DNA of 32,000 nt from Clostridiales bacterium (GCA_029008095.1 JAQXJB010000025.1:34448-66447), one strand, 5' to 3'. Positions 845 to 28,465 are shown, counted from the stretch's first letter. The notes: a model not told the origin generated them from the sequence alone. A program made the numbers and translations.

Positions 845-1987
845 ATGAACAGCGAATTTTTTCTCGCCCTTGAAGAGATAGAACGCGACAAGGGCATCCC
901 CAAGGATTACATGCTTGAACGCATCAATCAGGCGCTTCTTGCCGCCGTGCGCAAGGATAATCCCGCCGTTGCCGACGGCGTTGTGGTCGAGGTGGACGAG
1001 GCCAAGAAGAAAATCGGCATTTACATCGAAAAGACCGTCGTTTCCGAGCCCGAGAACGAACTGGAGATATCTCTGGAGCAGGCCCGCACCATTCGCCCCA
1101 GAGCCGAGATAGGCGACGTTGTCCGCTTCGACGTGGAGACCAAGAAGTTTGGCCGTATCGCCGCTCAGGCCGCGAAGCAGGTCATTATCCAGGGCATCCG
1201 CGAGGCCGAGCGCGGCATGATTTATGAGGAATTCACCTCCCGCGAGCATGAGGTGCTCAGCGGCGTTGTGCACCGCATCGACCCCAAGAACGGCAACGTT
1301 TACATGAAGGTCGCCTCCAAGGGCGACATGACCGAGGCCGTCATGCTGGCCGGCGAGCGAATAAAGGGCGAGGTCATCAACGAGGGCGACCACCTTAAGG
1401 TATATGTCGTTGAGGTGCGCCGCAGCACCCGCGGCCCCCAAATCATCATCTCCCGCACCCATCCCGGCCTGGTCAAGCGTCTTTTCGAGCTGGAGGTTCC
1501 CGAGATTTTCGACGGCACCGTGGAGATAAAGAGTATCGCCCGCGAGGCCGGCAGCCGCACCAAGATAGCCGTTTGGTCCAACGACCCCGAGGTCGACGCC
1601 ATCGGCGCCTGCGTCGGCGCCAAGGGCGCCCGCGTTGACAACGTTGTCGCCGAGCTGGGCGGCGAAAAGATAGACATCGTCAATTACAGCGACAACATAG
1701 AGGAATTTGTTGCCGCCGCCCTCGCTCCCGCCGAGGTCTATTCCGCCACCCTTCTGGAGGACGGCAGAAGCTGCCGCGTCATCGTGCCCGATAACCAGCT
1801 CTCTCTGGCCATCGGCAAGGAGGGCAAGAACGCCCGCCTGGCGGCCAAGCTCACCAACTGCAAGATAGATATCAAGCCCGCCTCCCAGATGATGGAGAGC
1901 GGCTCCATCAAGATAGACCTCTCCAAGCTGGACCTCTCCGAGAAGCCCGCCGAGGAGACGGAAGAAGCCGGGGAGACCGAGGAGTAA
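845..1987 (+). CDS. nusA: Transcription termination/antitermination factor NusA
   Basis: 380 aa. Contains S1/KH-type motifs (SRTHPGLVKRLFELEVPEI, GACVGAKGARV, LAIGKEGKNARLAAKLT). Conserved rimP-nusA-ylxR context. Confidence 0.95.
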   Translation: MNSEFFLALEEIERDKGIPKDYMLERINQALLAAVRKDNPAVADGVVVEVDEAKKKIGIYIEKTVVSEPENELEISLEQARTIRPRAEIGDVVRFDVETKKFGRIAAQAAKQVIIQGIREAERGMIYEEFTSREHEVLSGVVHRIDPKNGNVYMKVASKGDMTEAVMLAGERIKGEVINEGDHLKVYVVEVRRSTRGPQIIISRTHPGLVKRLFELEVPEIFDGTVEIKSIAREAGSRTKIAVWSNDPEVDAIGACVGAKGARVDNVVAELGGEKIDIVNYSDNIEEFVAAALAPAEVYSATLLEDGRSCRVIVPDNQLSLAIGKEGKNARLAAKLTNCKIDIKPASQMMESGSIKIDLSKLDLSEKPAEETEEAGETEE

Positions 1988-2685: not shown

Positions 2686-2741
2686 AAGCCGACCTATATA
2701 TCCATATCAGAATTCCAAGCAAATATCGGGGAGGTATGCGC

Positions 2742-5090
2742 ATGATTAAATACAGAGTGCATGAGGTGGCCAAGGACTTCAAGACCACTTCGAAGGTCAT
2801 CACGGAGGTTCTTACCAAGTATGCCACCGCGCCTAAAAATCACATGCAGGTGCTCACTGACCATGAGCTCAATATTATTTTCGACTATCTCACGCTGAAT
2901 AACCAGATCAGCGATATGGCGGAGATATTTGCCGGAGCTGCTCCCGCCGCGAAGGCCGAGACGCCCGCCGCGCAGCCCGCGGAGGCGAAGCCTGCCCAGC
3001 AGCCCAAGCCCCAGCAGGCTCAGCAGCCCAAGCCTCAGCCCGCGCAGCAGCAGGCAAAGCCTCAGCAGCAGGAGAAGCAGGCTCAGCCCGTCCAGCAGCC
3101 CCAGTCCCGCGTGCCCCAGAAGCGCATAATCGATACCAGCGGCGCCACTCTCAACGCCGCCAAGTATGACGAGCGCCTGGATAACTTCGTGCCCGACCGC
3201 CTTGCCAATGCGAAGCAGGGCAAGGAGAAGTTCGCCAAGCGCGGCGGCGATAAGCGCGGCAATATGGCTCAGGGCGCAAAGAAGCGCCAGGAGCAGAAGG
3301 CTCAGATGCAGAAGCTCCAGCTCGAGATAGCCAAAAAGGCGCCCACCAAGGTCTCCATTCCGGACAGCATCAACGTTGGCGAGCTGGCCTCCCGCATGAA
3401 AAAGACTGCCGCCGAGGTTGTGAGAACCCTCATCAAGAACGGCGTTATGGCCTCCATTTCCGATGTTATCGACTTCGACACCGCCGCTATCATTGCCGAG
3501 GAGCTGGGCTGCGTTGTTGAGAAAGAGGTAGTTGTCACCATCGAGGAGCGCCTGATTGACGATTCCGAGGACAAAGCGGAGGATCTGCGTCCCCGTGCTC
3601 CCGTTGTTGTTGTTATGGGTCACGTTGACCACGGTAAGACCTCCCTGCTGGACCGCATCCGCAACGCCCACGTCGCCGACGGCGAGGCCGGCGGCATTAC
3701 CCAGCACATCGGCGCTTATCAGGTGGAGATCAACGGCAAGCCCATCACCTTCCTTGACACTCCCGGCCACGAGGCCTTCACCTCTATGCGCGCCCGCGGC
3801 GCTATGGTCACCGACGTGGCCATTCTGGTGGTAGCTGCCGACGACGGCATTATGCCCCAGACTATCGAGTCCATCAGCCATGCCCGCGCCGCCGATATAC
3901 CCATCATCGTCGCCGTGAACAAGATGGATAAGCCCGGAGCAAACTCCGACCGCATCAAGCAGCAGCTCACCGAGCACGAGCTGGTTTGCGAGGAATGGGG
4001 CGGCGACACCATCGTCTGCGAGATCTCCGCAAAGACCGGCATGGGTGTGGATAACCTGCTGGAAATGGTTGCCCTCTCCGCCGAAATGCGCGAGCTGAAG
4101 GCCAACCCCAACCGTCTTGCCAAGGGTACTGTCATCGAGGCAAGACTGGATAAGGGCCGCGGCCCCATCGCCACCGTCCTCGTCCAGAACGGTACTCTTC
4201 GTTCCGGCGATATCATCATCGCGGGTACTGCCGTAGGCCGTGTCCGCACCATGATAAACGATAAGGGCCAGCGCATCGACAAAGCCGGCCCCTCCGTGCC
4301 CGTGGAGATCACCGGCATGAGCGAAACTCCCGGTGCGGGCGACGTTTTCAACGTTGTTGAGGACGAGCGCATGGCCCGTGAGCTGGTCGAGCAGCGCAAG
4401 GAGGAAAAGAAGAAGAGCACCACCGGCAGCGAACGCAAGGTCTCTCTGGACGATCTCTTTGCCCAGATCAAGGAGGGCGAGCTCAAGGAGCTGGCCATCA
4501 TCGTCAAGGCGGACGTTCAGGGCTCCGCCGAGGCGGTCAAGTCCTCTCTGGAGAAGCTGAGCAACGAAGAGGTGCGCGTGCGCGTCATCCACTCCGCCGT
4601 CGGCGCCATCAACGAGAGCGATATCATGCTCGCCTCCACCTCCAACGCCATCATCGTCGGCTTCAACGTCCGCCCCGATGCCGCCGCCCGTGACAGCGCC
4701 GTCCGCAACAAGGTGGATATGCGCATGTACCGCGTCATTTATGAGTGCATCGAGGAGATCGAGGCTGCTATGAAGGGTATGCTCGCGCCCCAGTTCAAGG
4801 AAGTCCTGCTGGGTCACGCCGAGGTTCGCCAGACCTACAAGGTTTCCAAGATCGGCACCATCGCCGGCTGCTATGTTCAGGACGGCAAAATCATCCGCAA
4901 CGCCTCCGTGCGCCTTGTCCGCGACGGTATCGTCATCCACGAGGGTGAGCTGGCGTCCCTGAAGCGCTTCAAGGACGACGTCAAGGAAGTTGCCAGCGGC
5001 TACGAATGCGGCCTTTCCATCGAGAAGTACAACGATATCAAGGAAGGCGACATCATCGAAGCCTATACAATGGAACAGATAAAGCTGTAA
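2742..5090 (+). CDS. infB: Translation initiation factor IF-2
   Basis: ORF 2736-5090. The ATG at 2742 is 7 nt after GGGGAGG. G-domain motifs [25 protein letters not shown] and NKMD are present. There is a P/Q/A-rich N-terminal linker. Confidence 0.95.
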
Positions 5091-5111
5091 TTTGCGCATA
5101 ACATAAAGAAT

Positions 5112-5216
5112 ATGTCATTCTGAGCCCGCCAACGGCGGAAGCGAAGAATCCCCGCAGTAAAGGAACTGCAAATGTAAACCTTCTGCGGAGATTCTTCACT
5201 TCGTTCAGAATGACAT
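5112..5216 (+). repeat. ~100-bp TIR hairpin element, copy 2 (orientation A)
   Basis: ATGTCATTCTGAGCCCGCCAACGGCGGAAGCGAAGAATCCCCGCAG...ACTGCAAAT...CTGCGGAGATTCTTCACTTCGTTCAGAATGACAT. Flanked by TA on both sides. Confidence 0.9.
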
Positions 5217-5234
5217 ATTTTTATATTTATCTGT

Positions 5235-5457
5235 ATTATCGTTTCTGCTGTAAAAACCGTTTTTGCCCGGCGGAGGCACGCCTCCGCCCTACATACCAAC
5301 GATAAGACTTACGGTATTTCGTAAGGCAGGGCGATTGCATGGGGAGTTAGGAGTTATTGAGCGTAGGGCGAGTACGTTCATCCTTCCGGATATCTCATTC
5401 GGTGGGCGTAGGGCAGGGGCGCGCCCCTGCCGTGCAGTAACAATACGCACAATGTAA
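5235..5457. repeat. REP/BIME-like cluster A
   Basis: Starts with the linker ATTATCGTTTCTGC. Unit GGCGGAGG-CACG-CCTCCGCC-CTAC at 5269-5292 (minus orientation). Unit GTAG-GGCAGGGGCGCGCCCCTGCC at 5408-5431 (plus orientation). Degenerate units at 5321 (GTAAGGCAGGGCG) and 5363 (GTAGGGCGAG). Ends with GTAACAATACGCACAATGTAA. Confidence 0.8.
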
Positions 5458-5483
5458 AAATAAAACATATTAACATAAAGAAT

Positions 5484-5588
5484 ATGTCATTCTGAGCCCG
5501 CCAACGGCGGAAGCGAAGAATCCCCGCAGTAACGGAACTGCCAATGTGAACCTTCTGCGGAGATTCTTCACTTCGTTCAGAATGACAT
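5484..5588 (+). repeat. ~100-bp TIR hairpin element, copy 3 (orientation A)
   Basis: Near-identical to copy 2, including the left flank AACATAAAGAAT and the right flank ATATTTTT. Lies 372 bp downstream of copy 2. Confidence 0.9.
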
Positions 5589-5643
5589 ATTTTTTTATGA
5601 TATCGTAAAAGAAAGGAGGGATAAGCGATCCCTTCATACAAGA

Positions 5644-5723: not shown

Positions 5724-7925
5724 TCAGGGAGTGAATGCCGCCCAATAGAAGCTGTAATCCTTCCCGTTCACGGTGAAGGTCAGTTTCGCATGGCCATCCC
5801 CCACCACGGTCACTTCCACTGTGCCGTCATCCAGCAGCCGATCCCGGATCACACTTTTGTCCGCATTGGTATAGGTGAAGTTGGTGATGGGCTTCCCGTC
5901 CAGCATAGGGATAAGCCGATAGGAGCCCTCCCAGCTGCCAAAGCTTGCACCGGGGTAGATGTCAATGCCCAGCCACTCCAGGGTGAAATTCTCCGGGTCC
6001 TCAGGCACGCACACATCTCCGTCGAACCCCTCCGTCACCCAGATAAAGGGATAGTCTTCGCCGTTATAGTGAATGATAAACGGCGTTTCCCCGTTTCCAA
6101 TCACAGTCACGGCAATGCGCCCGTCCCTGGTCTTCTGGTGATAAAGGATCCCGTCTTTTTCCACCGTATAGGTGAAGTCGGTCACTTTCTGCCCGCCTAC
6201 GAGCACATCGATATCGTACATCCATTTCCATGCGCCAAACCGCTCACCGGGTTTTACCGTAGAGCCTATAAAGCCCAGTGTCAGATCCCCCTTCGGGATC
6301 TCACCGATGGCTGAACTGCTGGCATCGGAGAACCAGCGGAACCGATAATCCACACCGTGAACGGTGACTGTGATGGTCTCATAGCCGCCGCCCACCACCT
6401 GTACCTTGATGCCGTCGTCAGCGGCGCGGCTGTGGGTCAGCACCCCGTTGCTGCTCATGGTATAGGTATAGTCGGTGATGACTTTGCCGTCCAGCATAGG
6501 GTAGAGCACATACTCTCCCTGGCCGCTTCCGCAGGTCTCGCCGGGTCTGACCGCAGCATCGCCGTATTTCAGCGTAACATTCTCATACTTAACGATGGCC
6601 TTCTCAGCGACCTTATCCGCGGCTGCCTGATCGGTGACATTGTAGCGCACCATCATGTTCAGCACGGCCTCCAGGCTGGTGTCAGCGCTGCACCACACAT
6701 CGGGATCATAACCCTTTCGGTCCACGTTTTCCATCACAAAGGGGAAGGTCAGGCTCACGCCGAAGTAGGCGTAAATGCCCGTGTTGGGCAGGGTCACGGA
6801 GATGTTGTTGCCGCAAAGCTGATAGCCGCCGGAATTGGTGCCGATGACGATGGTATTGTCCATGGTCTTCAGGAAGCTGAGCATACTCTCGCCGGAGGAG
6901 GCGCAGCCGTCATCCACCAGCACGATGATGGGGATGTCATTGGGCAGGAATGTGCCTGTCTGTTCGTAGCGCACGAACTGTCCGGCCAGGCCCTCGCCCT
7001 CGTTCCAGGCCGCGGCGCGCAGCTTGCTGTACCGGTTGCCCACCGCCACCGTGTAGCGGGCTTCCTTCCCAATGAAGCTCCGCATCCAGCTCTGGCCATA
7101 GCCGTCATTGCCGCCATGATTGCCCCGCAGGTCAAAGATGATGGCCTTTGCCGTTTGGGCCTCCTTGCCGCTGTTGATAAAGTCCTGCAGATCTATCCCG
7201 TACTCTCCCATGAAGCTGCGCACGGAAATGTACTGGATCCCCTTCGCCTGGAAGCTCTTCACATCCGGGCGGGTCTGGAAGCCGGAATAGGCCTGGCTCT
7301 CCGTCCAGCTCACGGTCTCGCTCCTGGTCTTGCCTGCTTCGTTTTGATAGGCTATGATGCAGCTCTTCACTTCCGTTCTGGGCACCAGAAGCACCGGCGC
7401 ATACACAAGCTCGCCGTCATCCATCAGGGTCAGTTCCACTGTTACCCGGGCATCGGAGATGGTTTTCAGATACCATCTTTCGCCGTTGTCCAGCTTATAA
7501 TAGCCATCTTCGCCTTTGTAGAGGCGCAGATCCTTTACATAAAAATACTCGTAGCGGGTAGAAGATTCATCCGGAGCGGCCCCGAAAATGGCGTGGGCAT
7601 CCCGGGCAAAGCTCAGCTCATCCGCGATCTTCCGCTCCAGGTCGGATACGTTCACGGTACTGAACTGCGCGACCCACTCCTTCACATTCTTTTCCGCAGT
7701 TTCAAACTTGTCCTGGCCGAAATAGTAGTAGGCGCAGTAGGCGGAGTGCAGCATCCGGAAGAACAGATCCACATCGCTCTGCGCCTGTGCACAGCTCACA
7801 GTGGTCTGATGCGCCGACGACTCCAGCAGGGAGCGGATCTCGCCGTCCGTCAGCAAGTCCGCCGTGGCGCTGTCATTTACCGTGTATTTGCTCAGCGTGG
7901 ATGTATCGATGGGCGCGGTCACCAC
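5724..7925 (-). CDS. S41 family (C-terminal processing/tail-specific-like) peptidase with three C-terminal ~95-aa repeats; probably the 3' part of a disrupted gene
   Basis: 733-aa ORF. S41-like motifs IIFDLRGNHGGN and LVDDGCASSGES are present. Three tandem repeats cover aa ~449-730. The frame is open only back to 7967, and an SLH fragment lies upstream in another frame. Confidence 0.8.
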   Translation of the reverse strand: MVTAPIDTSTLSKYTVNDSATADLLTDGEIRSLLESSAHQTTVSCAQAQSDVDLFFRMLHSAYCAYYYFGQDKFETAEKNVKEWVAQFSTVNVSDLERKIADELSFARDAHAIFGAAPDESSTRYEYFYVKDLRLYKGEDGYYKLDNGERWYLKTISDARVTVELTLMDDGELVYAPVLLVPRTEVKSCIIAYQNEAGKTRSETVSWTESQAYSGFQTRPDVKSFQAKGIQYISVRSFMGEYGIDLQDFINSGKEAQTAKAIIFDLRGNHGGNDGYGQSWMRSFIGKEARYTVAVGNRYSKLRAAAWNEGEGLAGQFVRYEQTGTFLPNDIPIIVLVDDGCASSGESMLSFLKTMDNTIVIGTNSGGYQLCGNNISVTLPNTGIYAYFGVSLTFPFVMENVDRKGYDPDVWCSADTSLEAVLNMMVRYNVTDQAAADKVAEKAIVKYENVTLKYGDAAVRPGETCGSGQGEYVLYPMLDGKVITDYTYTMSSNGVLTHSRAADDGIKVQVVGGGYETITVTVHGVDYRFRWFSDASSSAIGEIPKGDLTLGFIGSTVKPGERFGAWKWMYDIDVLVGGQKVTDFTYTVEKDGILYHQKTRDGRIAVTVIGNGETPFIIHYNGEDYPFIWVTEGFDGDVCVPEDPENFTLEWLGIDIYPGASFGSWEGSYRLIPMLDGKPITNFTYTNADKSVIRDRLLDDGTVEVTVVGDGHAKLTFTVNGKDYSFYWAAFTP

Positions 7926-11562: not shown

Positions 11563-11646
11563 TGGTATACCTCCCGAGATTTGTTTATGGGGATATTGTA
11601 TCATAAGGGAGGCCGTTTGGCAACGGGGGCGGATAAATGAAAAACA

Positions 11647-11750
11647 ATGTCATCCTGAACGCAGTGAAGAATCTCCGCAGGCGGTCGACATCGGCTGTCA
11701 AATCAATGCGGAGATTCTTCGCATCCGCCTGGGGCGGGCTCAGAATGACA
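11647..11750 (-). repeat. ~100-bp TIR hairpin element, copy 4 (orientation B)
   Basis: ATGTCATCCTGAACGCAGTGAAGAATCTCCGCAG...TGCGGAGATTCTTCGCATCCGCCTGGGGCGGGCTCAGAATGACA. This is the reverse complement of the orientation-A pattern. Confidence 0.9.
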
Positions 11751-11800
11751 AATCTTTAGGTTTTGCGTTTTAATTGTTATCTGGTACAAGGCTAAAAGTT

Positions 11801-11907
11801 ATGTCATCCTGAACGCAGTGAAGAATCTCCGCAGGTGGTTGACATCGGCAGACCAATCAATGCGGAGATTCTTCGCAACACGCTTTCAGCGCAGCTCAGA
11901 ATGACAT
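11801..11907 (-). repeat. ~100-bp TIR hairpin element, copy 5 (orientation B)
   Basis: Same arms as copy 4. The side hairpin here is CGCT-TTC-AGCG. TA flanks both ends. Confidence 0.9.
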
Positions 11908-11938
11908 ATTTTAGGTTATGCGTATCGCGCCCTTCCAA

Positions 11939-18990: not shown

Positions 18991-19809
18991 ATGAAATCAA
19001 GACTGCTGGTCGCGGCCATCGGAGTGCCGCTTACATTAATCATGCTGGTGCTGCTGCCCGATATAGGCACGGCAATATTCTGCGCGGCTATCTCCTGCGT
19101 CGCGGTGCATGAGATATATTCCGCCGTGGGCGTGACTTCCCTGCCGCCGGTCGTGCTGGGCTGCGTTTCCTCCCTGCTTATCACGGCCCTGGCCTGGTGC
19201 GGCGCGGACGCGTACATAGCCCTGGCCTGGTGCGCTTGCTATGGCATGCTTCTTTTCGCCCTCTGGGTGGCATACTATGAAAAAGAGCGCGTATTCGGCT
19301 TCGCCGGTCTCGGCGCCGGTCTGATGGCGGGGCTAATCATTCCCGGCGGCATGGCGGCTCTGGTGCTTCTCCGCACGGCGGAGCACGGCCGCTTCGCCGT
19401 GCTGCTGCCCATCATCATCGCCTACGCGGGCGACGGCGGCGCGCTTTTCGCGGGAATGCTCTTCGGAAAGCATAAGCTCGCCCCGAGAACCAGCCCCAAA
19501 AAGACCATAGAGGGCGGGCTCGGCGGCCTTGTCGTAGCCGTTGGCCTTTCGCTGGTATACGGCCTTGTCCTCCGCTATGGCTTCGATATAGCGCTCAGCT
19601 TCCCGATGCTGGCGCTCGCCGCCCTTATAACCGGCGTGGTCTCCCAGCTTGGCGACCTCTCCTTCTCCCTCATCAAGCGGGAGTTCGGCGTGAAGGATTA
19701 CGGCAAGCTGCTGCCCGGTCACGGCGGCGCTCTTGACCGCTTCGACAGCACCATCTTTGCAGCCCCGGCGGTGTGTCTGCTTCTGGATGCTCTGAACGTA
19801 ATGCACTGA
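18991..19809 (+). CDS. cdsA: Phosphatidate cytidylyltransferase (CDP-diglyceride synthase)
   Basis: 272 aa and multi-TM. C-terminal signature SQLGDLSFSLIKREFGVKDYGKLLPGHGGALDRFDS. RBS GGAGG. Confidence 0.9.
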   Translation: MKSRLLVAAIGVPLTLIMLVLLPDIGTAIFCAAISCVAVHEIYSAVGVTSLPPVVLGCVSSLLITALAWCGADAYIALAWCACYGMLLFALWVAYYEKERVFGFAGLGAGLMAGLIIPGGMAALVLLRTAEHGRFAVLLPIIIAYAGDGGALFAGMLFGKHKLAPRTSPKKTIEGGLGGLVVAVGLSLVYGLVLRYGFDIALSFPMLALAALITGVVSQLGDLSFSLIKREFGVKDYGKLLPGHGGALDRFDSTIFAAPAVCLLLDALNVMH

Positions 19810-19850
19810 GATAGATGGTGTGGAACCTCAGGTTTGGCAGGTCGATTTTT

Positions 19851-19931
19851 GCTTTCGCTCAGAATCTCCCAACTGACGGAACTGCCTATCTAAATCCAAC
19901 ACGGGAGATTCTTCCCGATGGTCAGAATGAC
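19851..19931 (+). repeat. TIR hairpin element, copy 6 (left terminus missing)
   Basis: GCTTTCGCTCAGAATCTCCC...GGAACTGCCTATCTAAATCC...CGGGAGATTCTTCCCGATGGTCAGAATGAC. Aligns to copy 7 except for the absent ATGTCATTCTGA end. Confidence 0.7.
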
Positions 19932-19982
19932 TTGACTTGGGGCTTTATCCGCAGTAAAGACCAAACGCAAAACCGAAAAACT

Positions 19983-20073
19983 ATGTCATTCTGAGCTTGC
20001 GAAGAATCTCCCATGTAACGTTACTGCCTATCTAAAACCAACCCCGGAGATTCTTCCCGATGGTCAGAATGAC
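19983..20073 (+). repeat. TIR hairpin element, copy 7 (orientation A, short variant)
   Basis: ATGTCATTCTGAGCTTGCGAAGAATCTCCC...TTACTGCCTATC...CCGGAGATTCTTCCCGATGGTCAGAATGAC. Confidence 0.85.
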
Positions 20074-20095
20074 GAGGAGTTTTACCTTAATTAGT

Positions 20096-20263
20096 ATTAT
20101 CGTTTCTGCGGCGGATATCAGAACAGGCGTGCAATGCACGCCCCTACGGTACGATGCCCCGGCGGAGGCACGCCTCCGCCCTACGTTTCATCCATATGCG
20201 TAACGGCAACTTCGTAGGGCAGGGGCGTGCCCCTGCCGTGCGGTAACGCTCCACACGATGTAA
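20096..20263. repeat. REP/BIME-like cluster B
   Basis: Starts with ATTATCGTTTCTGC. Units at 20126-20147 (minus; GGCGTGC-AAT-GCACGCC-CCTAC), 20161-20184 (minus; identical to 5269-5292) and 20214-20237 (plus; GTAG-GGCAGGGGCGTGCCCCTGCC). Ends with GTAACGCTCCACACGATGTAA. Confidence 0.8.
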
Positions 20264-20287
20264 CGACCAAACGCACAAGCCCCCCCT

Positions 20288-20346
20288 CTAACGTTACTGC
20301 CAATCTAACCCCAACACGGGAGATTCTTCCCGATGGTCAGAATGAC
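20288..20346 (+). repeat. TIR hairpin element, copy 8 (right half only)
   Basis: CTAACGTTACTGCCAATCTAACCCCAACACGGGAGATTCTTCCCGATGGTCAGAATGAC. Matches the right halves of copies 6 and 7. Confidence 0.7.
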
Positions 20347-20492
20347 AAAACCGAAAGTCTTGTACCATATAACGACACTATGAAAAAGCCCATCGTCCCG
20401 ACCTGCGGGCAAGCGGCGAGGATGGCAATGATCCTCCATGCGGGGGGATTTTTAATGACTATTTGTGCGGTGCTGCCGCATGGAGGAACGAT

Positions 20493-21638
20493 ATGATAAG
20501 TATACTTGGCAGCAGCGGCTCTATCGGCACGCAGACCATAGAGGTCGCGCAGAAGCTGAATATCGGTGTGGCGGCGTTGGCCGTGGGCAGAAGCATAGAG
20601 CTTGCCGAGAAGCAGGCGCGTATGCTTCACCCGAAGCTCGTAGCCGTATATGACGAGGCCGCGGCAAAAAATCTGAAAACCGCTCTTGCGGATACGGATA
20701 TCCGCGTGGGCGGCGGCATGAGCGCCGTCCTTGAGGCGGCGAGCCTCCCGGAGGCGGAGACCGTGGTTGCGGCAATGTCCGGCTCGGTGGGGCTGATGCC
20801 CGCAATGACCGCTCTTGAAGCGGGCAAGCGCCTTGCCTTCGCCAACAAGGAAACTCTGGTGTGCGCGGGCGAAATCGTGATGAAGAAGGCCGCCGAGACC
20901 GGGGCGGAGATACTCCCCGTGGACTCGGAGCACAGCGCCATTTTTCAGTGCCTTCAGGGCGGCGGCGACGTGAAACGGCTCATAATAACCGCCAGCGGCG
21001 GCCCCTTCCGGGGCAAAAAACGCCCGGAGCTGGAGAACGTCACCCGTGCCGACGCGCTGAAGCACCCCAACTGGAGCATGGGCGCGAAGATAACCGTGGA
21101 CTCGGCGACCCTGATGAACAAGGGCCTTGAATTTATCGAGGCCATGCATCTTTTCGCGGTAAGCCCGGATCATATATCCGTGCTCGTCCATCCCCAGAGT
21201 ATCGTCCACTCAATGGTGGAATTCGCGGACGGCTCGGTCATCGCCCAGATGGGCGCGCCGGACATGAAGCTGCCCATACAGCTCGCCCTCACCTGGCCAC
21301 GGCGTGTGCCCGGCGCGGCGACTCCGCTGGATCTGCGGCTCACAAAGCCCCTCACCTTTGAAGAGCCGGATATGGAGACCTTCCGCGCCCTGCCGCTGGC
21401 GATGGAGCTGGCGCGGCACAGAGGCACGGCGGACTGCTGCGTGATGAACGCGGCAAACGAGGTTGCGGCCTGGGCGTTTCTGGAGGGCCGGATAGGCTTC
21501 CTCGAAATATATGATGTTGTTGAAAAAGTGTGCGGCAGGCTTGCGGGCATGGCAGCCGCCGACCTTTCTGATGTGGCAGCCGCCGACGAGGCGGCAAGGA
21601 GGTATGCCTCGGAATGTATATCATCGTTGCGATCCTGA
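20493..21638 (+). CDS. dxr: 1-deoxy-D-xylulose-5-phosphate reductoisomerase
   Basis: ORF 20463-21638. The ATG at 20493 follows GGAGGA. N-terminus MISILGSSGSIGTQT. Motifs PVDSEHSAIFQCL and NKGLEFIEA are present. Confidence 0.95.
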   Translation: MISILGSSGSIGTQTIEVAQKLNIGVAALAVGRSIELAEKQARMLHPKLVAVYDEAAAKNLKTALADTDIRVGGGMSAVLEAASLPEAETVVAAMSGSVGLMPAMTALEAGKRLAFANKETLVCAGEIVMKKAAETGAEILPVDSEHSAIFQCLQGGGDVKRLIITASGGPFRGKKRPELENVTRADALKHPNWSMGAKITVDSATLMNKGLEFIEAMHLFAVSPDHISVLVHPQSIVHSMVEFADGSVIAQMGAPDMKLPIQLALTWPRRVPGAATPLDLRLTKPLTFEEPDMETFRALPLAMELARHRGTADCCVMNAANEVAAWAFLEGRIGFLEIYDVVEKVCGRLAGMAAADLSDVAAADEAARRYASECISSLRS

Positions 21639-22669
21639 TCTTCGGCGTTCTTATCGCCGTGCATGAGCTGGGTCATTTTCTGGCCGCCAAAAGCGCGGGC
21701 GTTAAGGTAAATGAATTTTCCATAGGAATGGGCCCCGCCCTCTTCAAGAAGCAGGGCGAGGAGACTCTTTATTCTCTGCGGCTGCTGCCCATCGGCGGCT
21801 ACTGCGCCATCGAGGGCGAGAACGGAGAGAGCGAGGACGCGCGGAGCATGGACAAAAAGCCCCTTTTGGCGCGGCTTTACATCCTTTTCGCCGGCTCGTT
21901 TATGAACTTTTTGACGGGCTTTCTCATCGTGCTCGTCATCGTTTCCACCAGCCCCTATTACTCCACCACCCGCATCGACGGCTTCATGGACGGCTTCCCC
22001 CTCCAGGGCGAGGACGGTCTGATGGTGGGCGACAGGATCGTTCAGATAGACGGCCATTCCGTGAATTTGATCAACGAATTTTCCCTCTATATGGACCGCC
22101 GCGCGGACAGCGAGACCGTTGACATGGTCGTAGTCCGGGACGGCGCAAAAGTGCGTCTGGACGATTTTCCGCTGGTCCTGCGGGAATATGAGGATAACGG
22201 CCAGACCGTTACGAAATACGGCCTTTACTTCGGCGTTTCCGAGCAGACCTTTTTCAGCGTTTTCAAGCAGGCCTGGTATAATTCCCTCTATTTTGTGAAG
22301 ATGGTCTGGATGGGTCTTGGCGACCTTGTGACAGGCCGGGCGGCGCTCTCCCAGATGTCCGGCGTGGTGGGCGCGGTCGCCGCCATAGGCGAGGTGGGCG
22401 CAAGCTCCGCCACCGTGGCCGACGGTCTTCTTAACGTATTTTATCTTGGCGCCTTCATCGCGGTGAACCTTTCTGTGATGAATCTGCTGCCCATTCCCGG
22501 CCTTGACGGCGGACATATCTTCACCATGATAGTCGTGGCAGTCATCACCCGTCTCACGGGCCGCAAGCCCAATCCCAAGGTGGAGGCGTATATCCACGGA
22601 GCGGGTCTTGTCCTGCTGCTGGGTCTGATGGCGGTGCTGCTGGTCAGCGACGTGGCGAAGCTGATATAA
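21614..22669 (+). CDS. rseP: Site-2 (M50) zinc metalloprotease RseP/RasP
   Basis: 351 aa. HELGHF zinc motif in TM1, a central PDZ-like segment, and a C-terminal NLLPIPGLDGG motif. Overlaps the dxr end by 25 nt. Confidence 0.9.
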   Translation: MYIIVAILIFGVLIAVHELGHFLAAKSAGVKVNEFSIGMGPALFKKQGEETLYSLRLLPIGGYCAIEGENGESEDARSMDKKPLLARLYILFAGSFMNFLTGFLIVLVIVSTSPYYSTTRIDGFMDGFPLQGEDGLMVGDRIVQIDGHSVNLINEFSLYMDRRADSETVDMVVVRDGAKVRLDDFPLVLREYEDNGQTVTKYGLYFGVSEQTFFSVFKQAWYNSLYFVKMVWMGLGDLVTGRAALSQMSGVVGAVAAIGEVGASSATVADGLLNVFYLGAFIAVNLSVMNLLPIPGLDGGHIFTMIVVAVITRLTGRKPNPKVEAYIHGAGLVLLLGLMAVLLVSDVAKLI

Positions 22670-22702
22670 AAGCGCGCAGCGCATTGAAAGGTCTGATAAA
22701 CC

Positions 22703-23743
22703 ATGACAAAACAGATAATCGCCGGGGGCGTCGCCATAGGCGGCGGCGCGCCGGTAACGATACAGTCCATGTGCAATACGGATACCCGTGACGCGGCGGC
22801 GACCATCGCCCAGATAAAGGCGCTGGCGGCTGCGGGCTGCGAGATCGTGCGCGTGGCCGTGCCGGATATGGAAGCGGCGCGGGCGATAGAGGAAATCAAG
22901 AAGGAATGTCCCCTGCCGCTGGTGGCGGACATACATTTCGACTACCGCCTTGCCGTAGCCGCCGCCGAGCGGGGCGCGGATAAGATACGCATAAACCCCG
23001 GCAACGTTGGCGGGCCCGAGAACGTGAAAAAGGTGGTGGAAGCCTGCCGCTGCCGCTCCTTGCCCATCCGCATCGGCGTGAACGGCGGAAGCCTTGAAAA
23101 GCCCCTGCTGGCGAAATACGGCGGCGCCACCCCGGAGGCCATGCTGGAAAGCGCCCTGGGACACGTCCGCCTGCTGAACGACTTCGGCTTTGACGATATC
23201 TGCCTTTCCCTGAAGGCCTCAAACGTGCCGGACACGGTGGCGGCCTACCGCCTTGCCCGCGAAGCGCTGGACTACCCTCTGCACATCGGTGTGACCGAAG
23301 CGGGCGGCGGCGAGCTTGCCATAGTCAAATCCGCCTGCGGCATCGGTTCCCTGCTCCTTGACGGCATCGGCGATACCATACGGGTCTCCCTCACCGGCGA
23401 CCCTCTGCGGGAGGTGACGGCGGCGAAGGAGATACTCCGGGCCGTTGGCCTGCGCAGCGAGGGCGTGGAGATCGTTTCCTGCCCCACCTGCGGCCGCACC
23501 GAGGTGGAACTGGAGAAAATTCTCGCGGACGTGACCGAGGCGCTGAAGGACTGCAAAAGGAACATCCGCGTGGCCGTGATGGGCTGCGTGGTGAACGGCC
23601 CGGGGGAGGCCCGTGAGGCCGATTACGGCGTGGCCGGCGGCAAGGGCTGCGGCATGCTCTTCCGCAAGGGCGAGATCGTCCGCAAGGTATCCGAGGACGA
23701 AATGGCCTCCGCCCTGGTGAAAATGATAGAAGAGGATACATAA
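22703..23743 (+). CDS. ispG: 4-hydroxy-3-methylbut-2-en-1-yl diphosphate synthase
   Basis: 346 aa. Motifs VTIQSMCNTDT, RINPGN, GVTEAG and the Cys cluster CPTCGR...GCVVNGPGE are present. Confidence 0.95.
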   Translation: MTKQIIAGGVAIGGGAPVTIQSMCNTDTRDAAATIAQIKALAAAGCEIVRVAVPDMEAARAIEEIKKECPLPLVADIHFDYRLAVAAAERGADKIRINPGNVGGPENVKKVVEACRCRSLPIRIGVNGGSLEKPLLAKYGGATPEAMLESALGHVRLLNDFGFDDICLSLKASNVPDTVAAYRLAREALDYPLHIGVTEAGGGELAIVKSACGIGSLLLDGIGDTIRVSLTGDPLREVTAAKEILRAVGLRSEGVEIVSCPTCGRTEVELEKILADVTEALKDCKRNIRVAVMGCVVNGPGEAREADYGVAGGKGCGMLFRKGEIVRKVSEDEMASALVKMIEEDT

Positions 23744-23771: not shown

Positions 23772-23799
23772 GCACGGCAGGGGCGCGCCCCTGCCCTGC
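23772..23799 (-). repeat. Single REP-like unit between ispG and polC
   Basis: A perfect 20-nt palindrome GGCAGGGGCGCGCCCCTGCC lies at 23776-23795, followed by CTGC (the reverse complement GCAG replaces GTAG). It belongs to the same stem subfamily as 5408-5431 and 20214-20237. Confidence 0.75.
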
Positions 23800-23880: not shown

Positions 23881-26800
23881 ATGAACACAAAGGTACCCTT
23901 CAGAGAAATGTTTTCCTGCTGCAATTCGGAGGACGGCTTCTTCTCCATATTGGACAAGGCCAACGTCATCTCCGTTTCCGTGGACAGGAAAACAGCCTCC
24001 ATGCGTCTGAAAATAGAATTTCCCGAAACTCCCGCGCCGGTCATCATCGGTCTCATCGAGGAGGGCGTAGCCCGGGAGCTGGAGATAAACAAGGTAACGG
24101 TGGAGCATTTCATCTCCGCGGACGCGGCGAAGAAGGCTTCGCCCCAGACCAGGCTGCCCCGTATGCTGGTGGGCAAAAAGATAATCGGCCACTCCATACC
24201 CATCTCCGAGCTGACCGTCGAGACCGGCCGCTGCGTCGTCACCGGCGAGGTGTTCGGCACGGAGCTGCGCGAGGTGCGCAACGGCACGGCCAAGATCCTC
24301 GACTTCAACATAACGGACTACACCGGCAGCCTCCGGGTCTCCAAGTTCCTCCGGGGCGAGGAGGACGCGGCCTATGAGGCTATTACCGACGGCATGTATA
24401 TAACCGTGCAGGGCATGGTGAGCTATAACCGCTGGCACGGCGATATCAGCATGGAGCCCGCCGCCGTGCGCCAGGACGAGAAGCCCGTCCGCAAGGACAA
24501 CTACTCCGGCGAGAAGCGCGTTGAGCTGCATCTGCACAGCCGCTATTCCGCCCTTGACGCGCTCACGGACATCGGCGACGTTGTAAAAACCGCCGCGAAA
24601 TGGGGTCATAAGGCCATCGCCCTCACCGACCACGGCGTGGCGCAGGGCTTCCCGGAGCTTTGCAGCGCCGGAAAAAAGAACGGCATCAAGGTCATCTACG
24701 GCGTGGAGGGCTATTACATAAACGATGTGGACGACCGCGTGGTAGTCCACGGCGACGGCGACTTCCCTCTTGAGGGCGAGTTCGTGGCCTTTGATCTGGA
24801 GACCACCGGCCTTTCCCCGGAAAACGACCGCATCACCGAGATAGGCGCGGTCATAATGAAGGACGGCAAGGAGACAGACCGCTTCCAGACCTTCGTTGAC
24901 CCCGGCAGGAGCATCCCCTATGAGGTGACGAAGCTCACGGGCATCCGGGACAGTGACGTAAAGGGCGCGCCCTCCGAGGCCGAGGCTGTAGGCGAGTTCA
25001 TGAAATTCGTGGGCGGGCGTCCCGTTGTGGCGCACAACGCCGATTTCGACACCGCCTTCATTGCCAACGCCTGCGGACGCATGGGCATTGAATATGACCT
25101 GACCAGCCTTGACACGCTGGTGCTGGCTCAGAACCTGCTGCCCGAGCTGAAAAAGTTCACTCTGGACAGCGTGGCGAATTATCTTTCCCTCCCGGACTTC
25201 AACCATCACCGGGCCTCCGACGACGCCCTGACCTGCGGCCTGCTGCTGCCCCATTTCTTCAAGCGCCTGCGGGAGCTGGGCGTAGAGCGGGTGGCCGATA
25301 TCAACGCGGCGATGATACCCCTGCGCAACAAGGGAAACAGCCGCCGCCAGCCAAAGCACATTATCATCCTTGTAAAGGAGCAGAAGGGCATCCGCAACCT
25401 TTACGAGATCATTTCCCGCGCCCATCTGGAGCATTTCAAAAAGTACCCCATCATCCCCAAGAGCCTGCTCATGCGCCTGCGGGACGGCCTTATCATCGGC
25501 TCTGCCTGCGAGGCGGGAGAGATATTCAAGGCCGTTGTCAGCGGCAAGAGCATGCGGGAGCTGAAGCGGCTGGGCGAGTTTTATGATTTCCTTGAAATTC
25601 AGCCCATCTGCAACAACGCCTTCATGGTTCGCAACGGTACCGCCCGGGACGATGAGCAGCTTCGCGACTTCAACCGCCGGGTGGTGGAGCTGGCGGACGA
25701 GCTGGGAAAGCCCGTGGTCGCCACCGGCGACGTGCATTTTCTTGAGCCGGAGCATGAGATATTCCGCCGTATACTCCTTTCCAACAAGTTCTCCGATTCG
25801 GATTACCCTCTGCCCCTCTACCTGAAAACCACCGAGGAAATGATGGAGGAATTCGCCTACCTCGGCCCTCAGAAGTGCTATGACGTGGTCATCGGCAATT
25901 CCAACCTCATCGCGGATATGTGCGATGAGGTAGCGCCCCTGCCTACCGGCCTTTTCGCACCGAAAATCGAAAATTCCGCCGAGGAGCTTCAGAGCCTTGT
26001 TTACGGCAAGGTCAACGCCCTCTACGGCGATAACCCTCCCGAGCTTATCACCAAGCGCCTTGAGACGGAGCTGGGCGGTATCATAGGCCGCGGCTACGAT
26101 GTTATATATATGAGCGCCCAGAAGCTTGTTGCCAAGTCTCTCGCCGCCGGTTATCTGGTGGGCTCCCGAGGCTCCGTGGGCTCGTCCCTCGTGGCCTTCA
26201 TGTCCGGCATAACGGAGGTAAACTCCCTCCCCGCCCATTACCGCTGCCCCAACTGCAAGCACTCGGACTTTGAGGCGGGCAAGGACTACGGCTGCGGCGT
26301 AGACATGCCCGACGCATACTGCCCCGTCTGCGGCACGAAGTACGTCAAGGACGGCTTCGACATACCCTTTGAGACCTTCCTGGGCTTCGCGGGCGACAAG
26401 GTTCCCGATATCGACCTGAACTTCTCCGGCGAATATCAGGCCCGCGCCCATAAGGACACCATCGACCTCTTCGGAGAATCCCACGTTTTCCGCGCGGGCA
26501 CCATCGGCACCATAGCGGAAAAGACGGCCTACGGCTACGTCAAGAAATATCTTGAGGAGCGCGGCATGCGCGTTTCCAAGGTGGAGGAGGACCGTCTCGC
26601 CCGGGGCTTTACCGGCGTCAAGCGCACCACGGGTCAGCATCCCGGCGGCCTGGTGGTCATACCCCAGGATCACGAGATATACGACTTCTGCCCGGTGCAG
26701 CACCCCGCCGACGACCCGGATACCGACATCATCACCACCCATTTTGAATACCACAGCATGGAGAGCAACCTCCTGAAGCTGGACATGCTGGGTCATGATG

Positions 26801-27825
26801 ACCCGACCATGATAAAGTATCTGGAGGAATTCACCGGTGTGGACGCCAAGTCCATCCCTCTGGACGACCCGGAGACCATGCGCCTGTTCATCACTCCGGA
26901 GGCTCTCGGCATCCCCGAGGGCGACCCCATCATCGGCAAGACCGGTTCCATCGCCGTGCCCGAATTCGGCACGAAGTTTACCCGGGAAATGCTGGCCGAC
27001 ACCCAGCCTAAGAAGTTTTCGACTCTGGTTCGCCTTTCCGGCTTCTCCCACGGTACCGACGTATGGCTGGGCAACGCCAAGGACCTTATCACCAGCGGCA
27101 CCGCCTCCGTTGACCAGGCCATCGGCTGCCGTGACGACATTATGATATACCTCATAAGCTGCGGCGTGCCGCCCAAGGACTCCTTCAGCATCATGGAGAA
27201 GGTGCGTAAGGGCAAGGGCCTTTCCACCGAGCACGAGCAGGAAATGCGGGATTACGGCGTGCCGGATTGGTACATTGATTCCTGCAAGAAGATAAAATAC
27301 CTCTTCCCCAAGGCTCACGCCGTGGCCTATGTCACTATGGCCGTGCGTATCGCGTGGTTCAAGGTACACCGTCCCGAGGCCTTTTACTGCGCCTATTTCA
27401 GCGTCCGCGCCCCGGCCTTCGACCTTGAGGTAATGTCCGGCGGAGCGGACAGCATCCGCCGCAAGATAAACGAGATAGAGGCCAAGCAGGACGCGAAGCA
27501 GGCGGAAAAGGATCTGCTCACCGCCCTTGAGGTGGCCTACGAGATGTATCTGCGCGGCATCGAGTTCGCCCCCGTGGACCTTTACCGCAGCGAAGCCACC
27601 AAATTCAAGATAGACGGCCACCGCCTCATCCCGCCCTTTACCGCCATCACCGGCCTCGGTGAATCCGCCGCGCTGGATATCGTGGCGCACCGGGACGAGC
27701 GCTTCCTCTCCATTGAGGAATTTTCCGCCGCCTGCCCCAAGGTATCCAAGACCCACATTGAGCAGCTCAAGGAGGCCGGCGCCTTCGGGGATATCCCCGA
27801 TACCGCCCAGATATCCCTGTTTTGA
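23881..27825 (+). CDS. polC: DNA polymerase III alpha subunit, PolC type
   Basis: 1314 aa. PHP motif VELHLHSRYSALDA, inserted DEDDh exonuclease (FVAFDLETTGLSP, HNADFD, HRASDDA), Zn-finger CPNCKH...CPVCG, and the polymerase core. RBS AAGGTGAAAG. Confidence 0.95.
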   Translation: MNTKVPFREMFSCCNSEDGFFSILDKANVISVSVDRKTASMRLKIEFPETPAPVIIGLIEEGVARELEINKVTVEHFISADAAKKASPQTRLPRMLVGKKIIGHSIPISELTVETGRCVVTGEVFGTELREVRNGTAKILDFNITDYTGSLRVSKFLRGEEDAAYEAITDGMYITVQGMVSYNRWHGDISMEPAAVRQDEKPVRKDNYSGEKRVELHLHSRYSALDALTDIGDVVKTAAKWGHKAIALTDHGVAQGFPELCSAGKKNGIKVIYGVEGYYINDVDDRVVVHGDGDFPLEGEFVAFDLETTGLSPENDRITEIGAVIMKDGKETDRFQTFVDPGRSIPYEVTKLTGIRDSDVKGAPSEAEAVGEFMKFVGGRPVVAHNADFDTAFIANACGRMGIEYDLTSLDTLVLAQNLLPELKKFTLDSVANYLSLPDFNHHRASDDALTCGLLLPHFFKRLRELGVERVADINAAMIPLRNKGNSRRQPKHIIILVKEQKGIRNLYEIISRAHLEHFKKYPIIPKSLLMRLRDGLIIGSACEAGEIFKAVVSGKSMRELKRLGEFYDFLEIQPICNNAFMVRNGTARDDEQLRDFNRRVVELADELGKPVVATGDVHFLEPEHEIFRRILLSNKFSDSDYPLPLYLKTTEEMMEEFAYLGPQKCYDVVIGNSNLIADMCDEVAPLPTGLFAPKIENSAEELQSLVYGKVNALYGDNPPELITKRLETELGGIIGRGYDVIYMSAQKLVAKSLAAGYLVGSRGSVGSSLVAFMSGITEVNSLPAHYRCPNCKHSDFEAGKDYGCGVDMPDAYCPVCGTKYVKDGFDIPFETFLGFAGDKVPDIDLNFSGEYQARAHKDTIDLFGESHVFRAGTIGTIAEKTAYGYVKKYLEERGMRVSKVEEDRLARGFTGVKRTTGQHPGGLVVIPQDHEIYDFCPVQHPADDPDTDIITTHFEYHSMESNLLKLDMLGHDDPTMIKYLEEFTGVDAKSIPLDDPETMRLFITPEALGIPEGDPIIGKTGSIAVPEFGTKFTREMLADTQPKKFSTLVRLSGFSHGTDVWLGNAKDLITSGTASVDQAIGCRDDIMIYLISCGVPPKDSFSIMEKVRKGKGLSTEHEQEMRDYGVPDWYIDSCKKIKYLFPKAHAVAYVTMAVRIAWFKVHRPEAFYCAYFSVRAPAFDLEVMSGGADSIRRKINEIEAKQDAKQAEKDLLTALEVAYEMYLRGIEFAPVDLYRSEATKFKIDGHRLIPPFTAITGLGESAALDIVAHRDERFLSIEEFSAACPKVSKTHIEQLKEAGAFGDIPDTAQISLF

Positions 27826-27923: not shown

Positions 27924-28027
27924 ATGTCATTCTGACCGAAGGGAAGAATCTCCGCAGTCGGGTTTAGAGTGGCAGTCAAATCAGTGCGGAGATTCTTCGC
28001 ACACGCTTCGCGTGGCTCAGAATGACA
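27924..28027 (-). repeat. ~100-bp TIR hairpin element, copy 9 (orientation B)
   Basis: ATGTCATTCTGACCGAAGGGAAGAATCTCCGCAG...TGGCAGTCAAATCAG...TGCGGAGATTCTTCGCACACGCTTCGCGTGGCTCAGAATGACA. The side hairpin is CACGC-TTC-GCGTG. Confidence 0.9.
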
Positions 28028-28053: not shown

Positions 28054-28188
28054 TTACATTCTTCGTGTCATTGCACGGCAGGGACGTGCCCCCCCCTGCA
28101 CGGTAATACGTTTTATCATTACATTGTGCATATTGTTATTGCGTTCCGGCGGGCGACACAATGGTCGCCCCTACGGTGTGATGACGCT
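28054..28188. repeat. REP/BIME-like cluster C (orientation reversed relative to clusters A and B)
   Basis: TTACATT...GCACGGCAGGGACGTGCCCCCCCCTGCAC (a degenerate unit at 28073-28103). A second TTACATTGTGCATATTGTTATTGC follows, then the unit GGGCGAC-ACAATG-GTCGCCC-CTAC at 28151-28174. Confidence 0.7.
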
Positions 28189-28370
28189 CACAGCAAAAAC
28201 GATAATGGGTATAAACGGAAAGAGCAGCACCGTAGGGGCGTGCATCGCACGCCCGGAGTGGAACGATGCCCACAGCAGAAACGATAATGGGTATAAACGG
28301 AAAGAGCAGCACCGTAGGGGCGTGCATCGCACGCCCGGAGTGGAACGATGCCCACAGCAGAAACAATAAT
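28189..28370. repeat. 82-bp tandem repeat (2 full copies plus a partial third), each copy containing a REP-like unit
   Basis: Units 28189-28270 and 28271-28352 are 81/82 identical. Each contains CAGAAACGATAAT (the reverse complement of the ATTATCGTTTCTG linker) and GTAG-GGGCGTGC-ATC-GCACGCCC (28232-28254 and 28314-28336). A third copy starts at 28353 and then diverges. Confidence 0.9.
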
Positions 28371-28389: not shown

Positions 28390-28465
28390 ATGTCATTCTG
28401 AACGCCGTGAAGGAGCTTCGCACCCGCCGTTACATTGGCAGTCAAATTACTGTGGGGGCTCTTAT
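28390..28465 (-). repeat. TIR hairpin element, copy 10 (degenerate, right terminus lost)
   Basis: ATGTCATTCTGAACGCCGTGAAGGAGCTTCGCAC...TTGGCAGTCAAATTACTGTGGGGGCTCTT. Aligns to copy 9, but the arms have decayed. Confidence 0.6.

Follow-up and report, generated by a model that had tools for sequence, protein, structure and literature searches.

A stretch of 32,000 nt from a Clostridiales bacterium (JAQXJB010000025.1:34448-66447, GCA_029008095.1), referred to below as the window, carries ten short units in which the tetranucleotide GTAG, or a mutated form of it, stands next to a GC-rich hairpin. These units raise the question of whether they are genuine repetitive extragenic palindromic (REP) elements, related to those that are served by REP-associated tyrosine transposases (RAYTs), or hairpins of some other origin. 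To our knowledge, work on REPs and RAYT enzymes has been confined almost entirely to Proteobacteria. A preliminary description of the window, made from sequence alone, likened the units to REPs and bacterial interspersed mosaic elements (BIMEs), sorted them into three subfamilies, and suggested either a REP-RAYT-type system or a convergent one. Our results indicate that they are probably true REPs of the GTAG superfamily, set in mosaics that resemble BIMEs and REPINs (REP doublets forming hairpins) in an Oscillospiraceae-type Firmicute, and that their core is linked to group-4 RAYTs in other phyla.

GTAG-tagged hairpins in the window

All ten units were recovered, one of them with a refined start (20125-20147). 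All are intergenic (10/10), lying after infB, between cdsA and dxr, between ispG and polC, or after polC. The units, and a dimer formed by two of them, are as follows (window coordinates).

5269-5292, minus strand: REP unit, C-type, stem variant CGGAGG, GTAGGGCGGAGGCGTGCCTCCGCC; DNA hairpin of -9.9 kcal/mol
5408-5431, plus strand: REP unit, C-type, stem variant CAGGGG, GTAGGGCAGGGGCGCGCCCCTGCC, followed by GTGC
20125-20147, minus strand: REP unit, type III, GTAGGGGCGTGCATTGCACGCC(T)
20161-20184, minus strand: REP unit, C-type, stem variant CGGAGG, identical at 24/24 positions to 5269-5292
20214-20237, plus strand: REP unit, C-type, stem variant CAGGGG, loop GT
20161-20237: REPIN-like dimer with GTAG inside (TT type), C-type arms with different stems, 29-nt spacer
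23776-23799, minus strand: C-type CAGGGG hairpin with the tag mutated to GCAG and GTGC on the other side
28073-28103, plus strand: degenerate C-type copy with GCAC for GTAG, in which extra C's break the stem (repeat family D18)
28151-28174, minus strand: REP unit, variant IIIb, GTAGGGGCGACCATTGTGTCGCCC
28232-28254, plus strand: REP unit, type III, GTAGGGGCGTGCATCGCACGCCC
28314-28336, plus strand: REP unit, type III, second copy in an 82-nt tandem duplication (repeat family D11)

Each unit consists of GTAG and a hairpin of about 20 nt, with a stem of 7-9 bp, a loop of 2-6 nt, and a foot of GGC/GCC (C-type) or GGG/CCC (type III); the DNA folding energies of single units range from -8.1 to -13.3 kcal/mol. 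The division into three subfamilies had to be revised in part. Subfamilies I and II differ at only two stem base pairs, both compensated, and are one family, the C-type, with the pattern GTAGGGC-N-G-N-GGCG-Y-GCC-N-C-N-GCC, while subfamily III is indeed a separate family, GTAGGGGCGTGC-ATY-GCACGCCC, with the variant GTAGGGGCGAC-CATTGT-GTCGCCC. Within the C-type, the units at 5408-5431 and 20214-20237 share the form GTAGGGCAGGGGCG[C/T]GCCCCTGCC followed by GTGC; the three type III units at 20125-20147, 28232-28254 and 28314-28336 share GTAGGGGCGTGCAT[T/C]GCACGCC. Neither consensus pattern found a match in 100 shuffles of the window, and the 24/24 identity that had been reported for 5269-5292 and 20161-20184 was confirmed.

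The unit at 5269-5292 is placed between the convergent infB and S41 peptidase genes and forms with 5408-5431 a pair with GTAG inside, the spacer of which is atypical (115 nt). This pair is enclosed by a tandem duplication at 5099-5598, with a period of 372 nt and 128-nt ends that are 97% identical. Similarly, an 82-nt unit present twice (28176-28257 and 28258-28339, 93% identical) duplicates a type III REP.

Conservation of the hairpin in other genomes

Scanning a single genome of each species for the C-type pattern, with its five variable positions left free, gave at least 102 blocks of sequence. Forty-five of them (~300 kb) come from 11 Clostridia metagenome-assembled genomes (MAGs) and cover perhaps a tenth of each of these fragmented assemblies; the MAGs are gut Oscillospiraceae of sheep, buffalo and roe deer, Faecousia, Candidatus Lawsonibacter pullicola, and other Eubacteriales/Clostridiales. 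Most of the other blocks listed are from Chloroflexota (Aggregatilineales among them), from Terriglobia (Acidobacteriota) and from a Duncaniella MAG (Bacteroidota), and a few matches that fall within genes of very GC-rich genomes probably arose by chance. A metagenome scan added 120 further loci with the same taxonomic spread. The pattern for dimers with GTAG inside found no match in metagenomes, and a scan of viral contigs gave no match.

As the search pattern left both variable stem pairs free, covariation could be read from its matches. Both pairs were Watson-Crick in 174 of 254 exact matches among the matches listed, compared to a mean of 26 and a maximum of 44 when the 3' partners were shuffled (2000 shuffles); the copies are related by descent, so no probability is attached to this difference. 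Seven complementary stems occur (CTGAGG, CGGGGG, CAGGGG, CGGAGG, CCGGGG, CCGCGG and CCGAGG), and these compensated variants of one hairpin indicate that pairing is what is conserved. A more general search, for GTAG followed within 0-1 nt by a perfect stem of 7 bp or more, was run on the REP-selected blocks of the two closest relatives among the matches listed, the Oscillospiraceae MAGs RGIG6375 (sheep rectum, JAFXFT01) and SRP315200_co1_518 (CAYYLZ01, hereafter CAYYLZ); it found 80 units in the 142 kb of the former and 23 in the 95 kb of the latter. These units include a further stem family, GTAGGGAAYRGKC..GMCYRTTCC, which lies outside the original search pattern and is therefore free of its ascertainment.

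The two relatives are 79-88% identical to the window in nucleotide sequence over the window genes, and the same intergenic sites are occupied in them, after infB and between cdsA and dxr. Other sites differ in content. The spacer between the SDR and SLH genes holds two hairpins of a second repeat family (family 2, described below) in the window, versus one family-2 copy, a GTGG-tagged hairpin and a C-type REP in CAYYLZ. The hairpin at 23776-23799 sits between ispG and polC; the orthologous site of RGIG6375 lacks it and has a different array of small hairpins instead. This array (locus L001, ~380-520) has separators CATGAATTG and a grammar of constant word plus hairpin like that of Gut-1 RNA, a module considered below.

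The GTAG tag

The association of GTAG with the hairpins was assessed in a census of the window in which every hairpin with a perfect stem of at least 7 bp and a G+C content of at least 55% was collected (n=27) and the tetramer at each foot was scored. GTAG stood immediately 5' at one foot of 7 of the 27 hairpins, and of an eighth at an offset of 1 nt, and never at both feet. From the background frequency of GTAG (0.0019 per position), ~0.1 occurrences would be expected in the 54 flanks (Poisson P ~2e-11), so that the tag is far commoner than base composition predicts; each of the other flanking tetramers occurred at most 3 times. In the loci of relatives, GTAG was found at one foot of 72/153 hairpins in RGIG6375, 22/63 in CAYYLZ and 23/83 in other Clostridia, and it was the commonest flanking tetramer in every group of loci.

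Dimers and mosaics

In the Clostridia loci, units in opposite orientation form dimers of two kinds, with GTAG inside (n=23, spacer 27-29 nt), to which 20161-20237 of the window belongs, and with GTAG outside (n=15, spacer 35-37 nt). The spacers are ~61% identical in pairwise comparisons, and whole dimers are found in both orientations, which together indicate that the dimer behaves as a unit. Folded as single-stranded DNA, the dimer at 20161-20237 forms one long imperfect hairpin (-27.4 kcal/mol, z -3.7). Its arms carry different stems, as do those of 39/40 dimers; none of the 23 dimers with GTAG inside has identical arms, compared to 27% predicted by random pairing (P=8e-4). Relatives carry four-unit mosaics, (+)(-)(-)(+) and ~190 nt long, at the infB and cdsA-dxr sites (e.g. 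L015). The BIMEs of E. coli are defined by just such a switch of REP type with orientation. Thus, the REP/BIME reading of the preliminary description is borne out by the GTAG foot, the GC-rich stem and its compensatory variants, the extragenic location, and the alternating dimers with alternating stem types.

The same core at RAYT genes of other phyla

We screened six-frame open reading frames (ORFs) for RAYTs with the sequence of E. coli TnpA_REP (identical to PDB 4ER8) and a motif regular expression, and found none in the genome blocks listed (at least 102) and RAYT genes in 3 of the 120 metagenome loci (L108, L147 and L201). Locus L108 (1007 bp, G+C 44.5%) encodes a RAYT ORF of 185 aa with the motifs NHMH, WQDSFHDHII and YVDTNP. 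The unit GTAGGGCTGAGGCGTGCCTCAGCC lies 9 bp past the 3' end of this gene, two GTAGGGATGAGGC(C/G)TGCCTCATCC units lie upstream, and a further REP is inserted in frame inside the gene (345-368), where it encodes VGMRRASS; L108 is a textbook REPtron. The other two genes contain 'double foot' units (GTAG...CTAC) at 288-315 of L147 and 78-105 of L201. NCBIfam model NF047646 (REP-associated tyrosine transposase) matched the proteins of L108 (E 3e-17) and L147 (E 2e-15), both under its 80-bit equivalog cut-off, as the alignment is interrupted by the insert, and the match of Pfam Y1_Tnp to these two proteins was marginal. In the very GC-rich metagenome contig of L201, a Cas4-like ORF and a CRISPR-like array with the repeat CCTCAATCGCTCCTCTGAGGCATCGAAAG come after the RAYT gene (420-1455).

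A protein search with the RAYT of L108 returned 7264 relatives, and the named ones among the best 120 are 'RayT' or 'transposase' proteins of Chloroflexota/Anaerolineae. REP-encoded inserts after the HuH motif are present in many of these best 120 (VGLRRASA, VGTRHASSL, ..RPY and ..VPT), and many RAYT homologues have two or three such inserts (proteins P0001-P0329). One match of the search with L108, P0004, is encoded in L224 (JBGAHG010000020.1, Aggregatilineales MAG_AAO_H125.28) with a REP 19 nt after the gene, and the same MAG (JBGAHG01) is the source of the C-type REP loci L035, L038 and L090. In L227, REPs stand on both sides of the RAYT gene and inside it (4283-4306).

For REPs of RAYT subclass 2.4, three G-C pairs at the foot of the stem, 'double foot' forms and copies inserted within tnpA_REP have been described (PMC6006769), and all three features were observed for this core. 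The RAYT genes that the C-type core flanks in Chloroflexota, Bacteroidota and Acidobacteriota are of the group 4/subclass 2.4 type. Since the same core flanks RAYT genes elsewhere and is inserted in them, the units of the window are very likely genuine GTAG REPs that are homologous to the REPs of group-4 RAYTs; homology, and not the convergence that had been offered beside it, is what this linkage favors.

Comparison with known systems

The window units agree with the GTAG superfamily (Di Nocera, De Gregorio and Rocco 2013, PMC3733652) in having an unpaired GTAG at a GC-rich stem of 6-13 bp with a short loop, in having subfamilies with complementary stem changes and families common to distant phyla, in occurring as singletons, head-head or tail-tail dimers 20-100 bp apart and clusters, and in lying between unidirectional and convergent genes. 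The available text of that survey places GTAG repeats in Proteobacteria, Cyanobacteria, Chloroflexi and the PVC group; its 24 families, which can be set beside the present core by description only, include none from Firmicutes. Members of the superfamily are extragenic and usually number more than 100 copies in a genome. The proteins of group 4 (Bertels 2017), or subclass 2.4 (Quentin 2018), likewise share with the RAYTs found here NH[IFV]H, WQ and Y..NNP-type motifs, but in the Oscillospiraceae lineage only the REP half of such a system was seen. Group 4 is common in Cyanobacteria, Bacteroidetes, Chlorobia and Caldilineae, and not in Clostridia (Bertels 2017, Quentin 2018). Bertels et al. (2017) found it in 17 classes and mention for Clostridia only group 1, which is not REP-associated. 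In Quentin et al. (2018), class 2 RAYTs are sparse outside Cyanobacteria, Bacteroidetes and Proteobacteria, and Clostridia appear only for the IS200-type subclass 1.1.

As in the BIMEs of E. coli, with their Y and Z REPs, orientation alternates together with stem type and the linkers are conserved in length and sequence; the stem sequences and linker motifs are different here, however, and the hairpins are simple and unbulged. E. coli BIMEs are in addition bound by the host proteins IHF, DNA gyrase and Pol I. The dimers resemble the REPINs of Pseudomonas fluorescens (Bertels and Rainey 2011) in that two inverted REPs and their spacer form a unit, with a long hairpin and both orientations. They differ in that their arms are never identical, so that the long hairpin is mismatched, in that their spacers are more diverged than those of young REPIN populations, and in that the single-copy RAYT which defines a REPIN-RAYT pair was not found in the Clostridia sequences examined. 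Insertion sequences (ISs) of the IS200/IS605 family, whose TnpA class is common in Clostridia (Quentin et al. 2018), also combine a hairpin and a short guide or cleavage tetranucleotide with a Y1 HUH enzyme (TnpA_IS200) that acts on single-stranded DNA. Their paired hairpins, however, stand at the ends of an IS with tnpA and/or tnpB and have no GTAG foot, and none was found here. Searches of the literature with exact REP strings gave nothing relevant, and no match to the REPs or to family 2 was found in Rfam in either gathering or E-value mode; an Rfam match of mir-3180 over the dimer (E 0.39) is a chance match.

Gene setting and accompanying repeats

A Pfam scan of the window (G+C ~57%) identified the following genes.

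845-1987, plus strand: nusA
2736-5090, plus strand: infB
18991-23743, plus strand: cdsA-dxr-rseP-ispG
23881-27825, plus strand: PolC-type DNA polymerase III
Minus strand: SLH-domain protein and MacB/HlyD-type exporter

PolC and this gene order are hallmarks of Firmicutes, and the host of the window is an Oscillospiraceae-like Firmicute. An index of public assemblies contained no exact match to its IspG protein. The N-terminal region of infB contains a Pro/Gln/Ala-rich repeat with a 24-nt period (2959-3312), an ordinary low-complexity linker.

The second repeat family is a hairpin of ~100 nt that is not a REP. Its copies in the window are as follows.

5114-5214, plus strand: family 2, GTCATTCTGA..GAAGAATCYCCGCAG..loop ACTGCCA..TAAACC..CTGCGGAGATTCTTC..TCAGAATGAC
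~88-189, 5486-5586, 11649-11749, 11803-11905, 19985-20073, 27926-28026 and 28392-28490: further copies
19861-19931 and 20276-20346: partial copies
31160-31180: half copy

The outer stem of family 2 is GTCATTCTGA/TCAGAATGAC and the inner one GAAGAATCTCCGCAG/CTGCGGAGATTCTTC; the hairpin also has an asymmetric side hairpin, and its loop motif is conserved. Copies lie in both orientations, often with a T-rich run after the right end, and those in L015 and L002 have compensatory changes in the inner stem (GAAGCATCCCCCG/CGGGGGATTCCTC). The REPs had been described as tied to this family. The two do share intergenic mosaics, but each also occurs alone, family 2 at 11605-11938 and 88-189 and a REP at 23776-23799, so that the link is co-residence in the same mosaics and not a fixed composite.

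Two linker modules also recur. The first, TATTATCGTTTCTGC, precedes REP clusters at 5233-5248, 20095-20109 and 195-224, and is inverted at 28196-28215 and 28278-28297 as well as in L015 (~7020-7045). The second, GTGC-GTAAC..CACAATGTAA, follows the CAGGGG unit at 5432-5460 and 20238-20262 and is inverted at 28104-28142.

Gut-1 RNA (RF01706) matched the window at 1-69 and 31184-31260 and L034 at 6829-6904, with 62-78 bits compared to a gathering threshold of 50. It consists of three small hairpins with GTGAAAT separators, and the copy in L034 directly follows a stop codon and is itself followed by a terminator and REPs. We know of descriptions of Gut-1 only from human gut metagenomes, with no host assigned; here its hosts are Oscillospiraceae, where it adds a further module to the intergenic mosaics. 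Downstream of the second window copy, 31262-31370 holds small hairpins separated by (A/C)TTCAC(T), approximately the reverse complement of GTGAAAT, and the two regions together may form a larger symmetric arrangement.

Proposed mechanism and alternative explanations

By analogy with the biochemistry and structure of E. coli TnpA_REP and with the IS200/IS605 model (PMC3479197, PMC8266576 and PMC6006769), a Y1/HUH enzyme of the TnpA_REP kind would recognize the folded hairpin and its unpaired GTAG guide on single-stranded DNA, as at a replication fork. In a group-4 system, the RAYT would bind and cut single-stranded GTAGGGCAGGGGCGTGCCCCTGCC. Cleavage and rejoining near GTAG would then allow units and two-arm dimers to be copied or moved into intergenic DNA, mostly downstream of genes, where the resident hairpins would be kept paired by compensatory stem changes. 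Hairpins downstream of genes probably also act on transcripts, either as 3' stabilizers or in processing. We consider it an even chance that a RAYT serves these REPs in this lineage today.

Several results weigh against such a system being at work in this host. Neither the window, in agreement with the preliminary description, nor the 45 blocks of the 11 Clostridia MAGs yielded a RAYT ORF or fragment when searched using phmmer with E. coli TnpA_REP, a hidden Markov model of 120 RAYTs, tblastn with 329 RAYTs, a motif regular expression, and inspection of the ORFs between REP clusters; the REPtron-like gaps between clusters were found to contain only ordinary genes. A protein probe was designed from RAYT motifs, with variable positions masked, and Oscillospiraceae REP peptides in sense and antisense frames. 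Among the best 120 of its 3548 matches it gave only generic RAYTs, none of them with an insert of this kind and none a Clostridial candidate, a weak negative, as the probe had no positive control. A search with the RAYT of L147 gave only Bacteroidales-type proteins and no Clostridial candidate; Bacteroidales-type RAYTs from gut assemblies carry REP inserts of their own (VETWRAASLQ and VETGRAPSL). In their available text, broad surveys of REPs and RAYTs report no GTAG REPs in Firmicutes, and this holds for Nunvar et al. (2010) and the RepRanger paper (2025). Finally, the dimer spacers have diverged to ~61% identity around perfect arms, which fits old, selected insertions equally well as ongoing spread.

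A few candidates from these searches were examined and set aside. A match in L075, obtained with phmmer using E. coli TnpA_REP and ISHp608 TnpA against the at least 102 loci, was out of frame and spurious; weak tblastn matches in L065 and L148 correspond to a response regulator; and the sole Firmicute match to a RAYT in a tblastn search of plasmids is a truncated transposase in a methyltransferase locus of Monoglobus, which has no REPs.

The failure to find a RAYT is itself a weak negative, because the search covered the blocks listed and little of each MAG, REPs lie where contigs end, and assembly typically leaves a RAYT gene on a contig of ~1 kb, which binning discards. Furthermore, a RAYT was present in only ~1-3% of REP-bearing metagenome blocks (3/120), so that 0/45 would be unsurprising even if the gene exists. 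REP units were observed within the first few bases of MAG contigs in L014, L055, L070, L095 and L101, which suggests that short-read assemblies of these Oscillospiraceae break at the repeats.

These results also bear on an alternative in which the units are relics or have been domesticated: the REPs would have arrived in Oscillospiraceae in the distant past together with a RAYT, which later disappeared, and the host would use the hairpins, e.g., for mRNA 3'-end protection, as protein binding sites or in chromosome structuring, with change confined to duplication, recombination and point mutation followed by compensatory repair. The failure to find a RAYT in the Clostridia sequences examined (the window and the 45 blocks) speaks for this alternative, as do the occupation of the same intergenic sites in species that are just 79-88% identical, the dimer spacers at merely ~61% identity beside perfect stems with compensatory changes, and the local tandem duplications that carry units (28176-28339, and the 372-nt period at 5099-5598). 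However, it does not readily account for identical 24-mers at unlinked loci of one genome or for the turnover of repeat content at orthologous sites between species, an indirect sign of mobility, and the RAYT search, having reached a small part of fragmented MAGs from which ~1 kb RAYT contigs are expected to be missing, lends it little. We therefore regard it as unlikely, though it deserves to be kept in mind. A related scenario, to which we assign a similarly low probability, is that a REP/BIME population of group-4 type colonized gut and rumen Oscillospiraceae and persists and diversifies there without a cognate RAYT, as compensatory stem variants, dimers with almost always unlike arms and conserved orthologous sites would show, maintained by the host for a function of its own or moved by a different enzyme; in this case the entry would probably have been horizontal, because the same 24-nt core is present in Chloroflexota, Bacteroidota and Acidobacteriota.

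Two further explanations carry less weight still. The GTAG hairpins could be modules of a larger composite, non-autonomous element that also comprises the GTCATTCTGA family and the linkers, in which GTAG would be incidental and movement would depend on another transposase or on recombination. Three of the four REP-bearing intergenic regions of the window do contain family-2 copies, the linkers TATTATCGTTTCTGC and, after the GTGC flank, GTAACAATACGCACAATGTAA recur beside the units, and 5099-5598 resembles a 372-nt unit with a family-2 copy at each end. Such an element is nevertheless very improbable, given that family 2 stands alone at 11605-11938 and 88-189 and a REP at 23776-23799, that REP mosaics in relatives have other neighbors, and that in other phyla this REP core is found beside RAYT genes and unaccompanied by family 2. 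More improbable still is that the units are ordinary intrinsic terminators, or palindromes resembling operators, which formed where they now stand and are alike through base composition only. Their position downstream of genes and the terminator-like appearance of GC-rich hairpins would suit this, but no unit is followed by a T tract and a terminator scan called none of them, and on this ground the intrinsic-terminator reading was rejected. Nor would it explain identical 24-mers at different loci, with no match in shuffles, the one-sided GTAG tag (P ~2e-11), dimers at fixed spacing and both orientations, or the same sequence in four phyla.

Implications

The grammar of these elements, GTAG-superfamily REPs in BIME- and REPIN-like mosaics, is a known one; the Firmicute host, the identity of the core across phyla and the rule that the two arms of a dimer differ are useful additions to it. 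Dense BIME-like REP mosaics in a common group of gut and rumen Clostridia widen the host range of the system, and the presence of one REP core in at least four phyla argues for horizontal spread of REP-RAYT pairs. Since MAGs break at the repeats, intergenic content and RAYT genes are systematically lost from bins. If the lineage truly has no RAYT, it would serve as a natural experiment on whether a function in the host is enough to maintain REPs.

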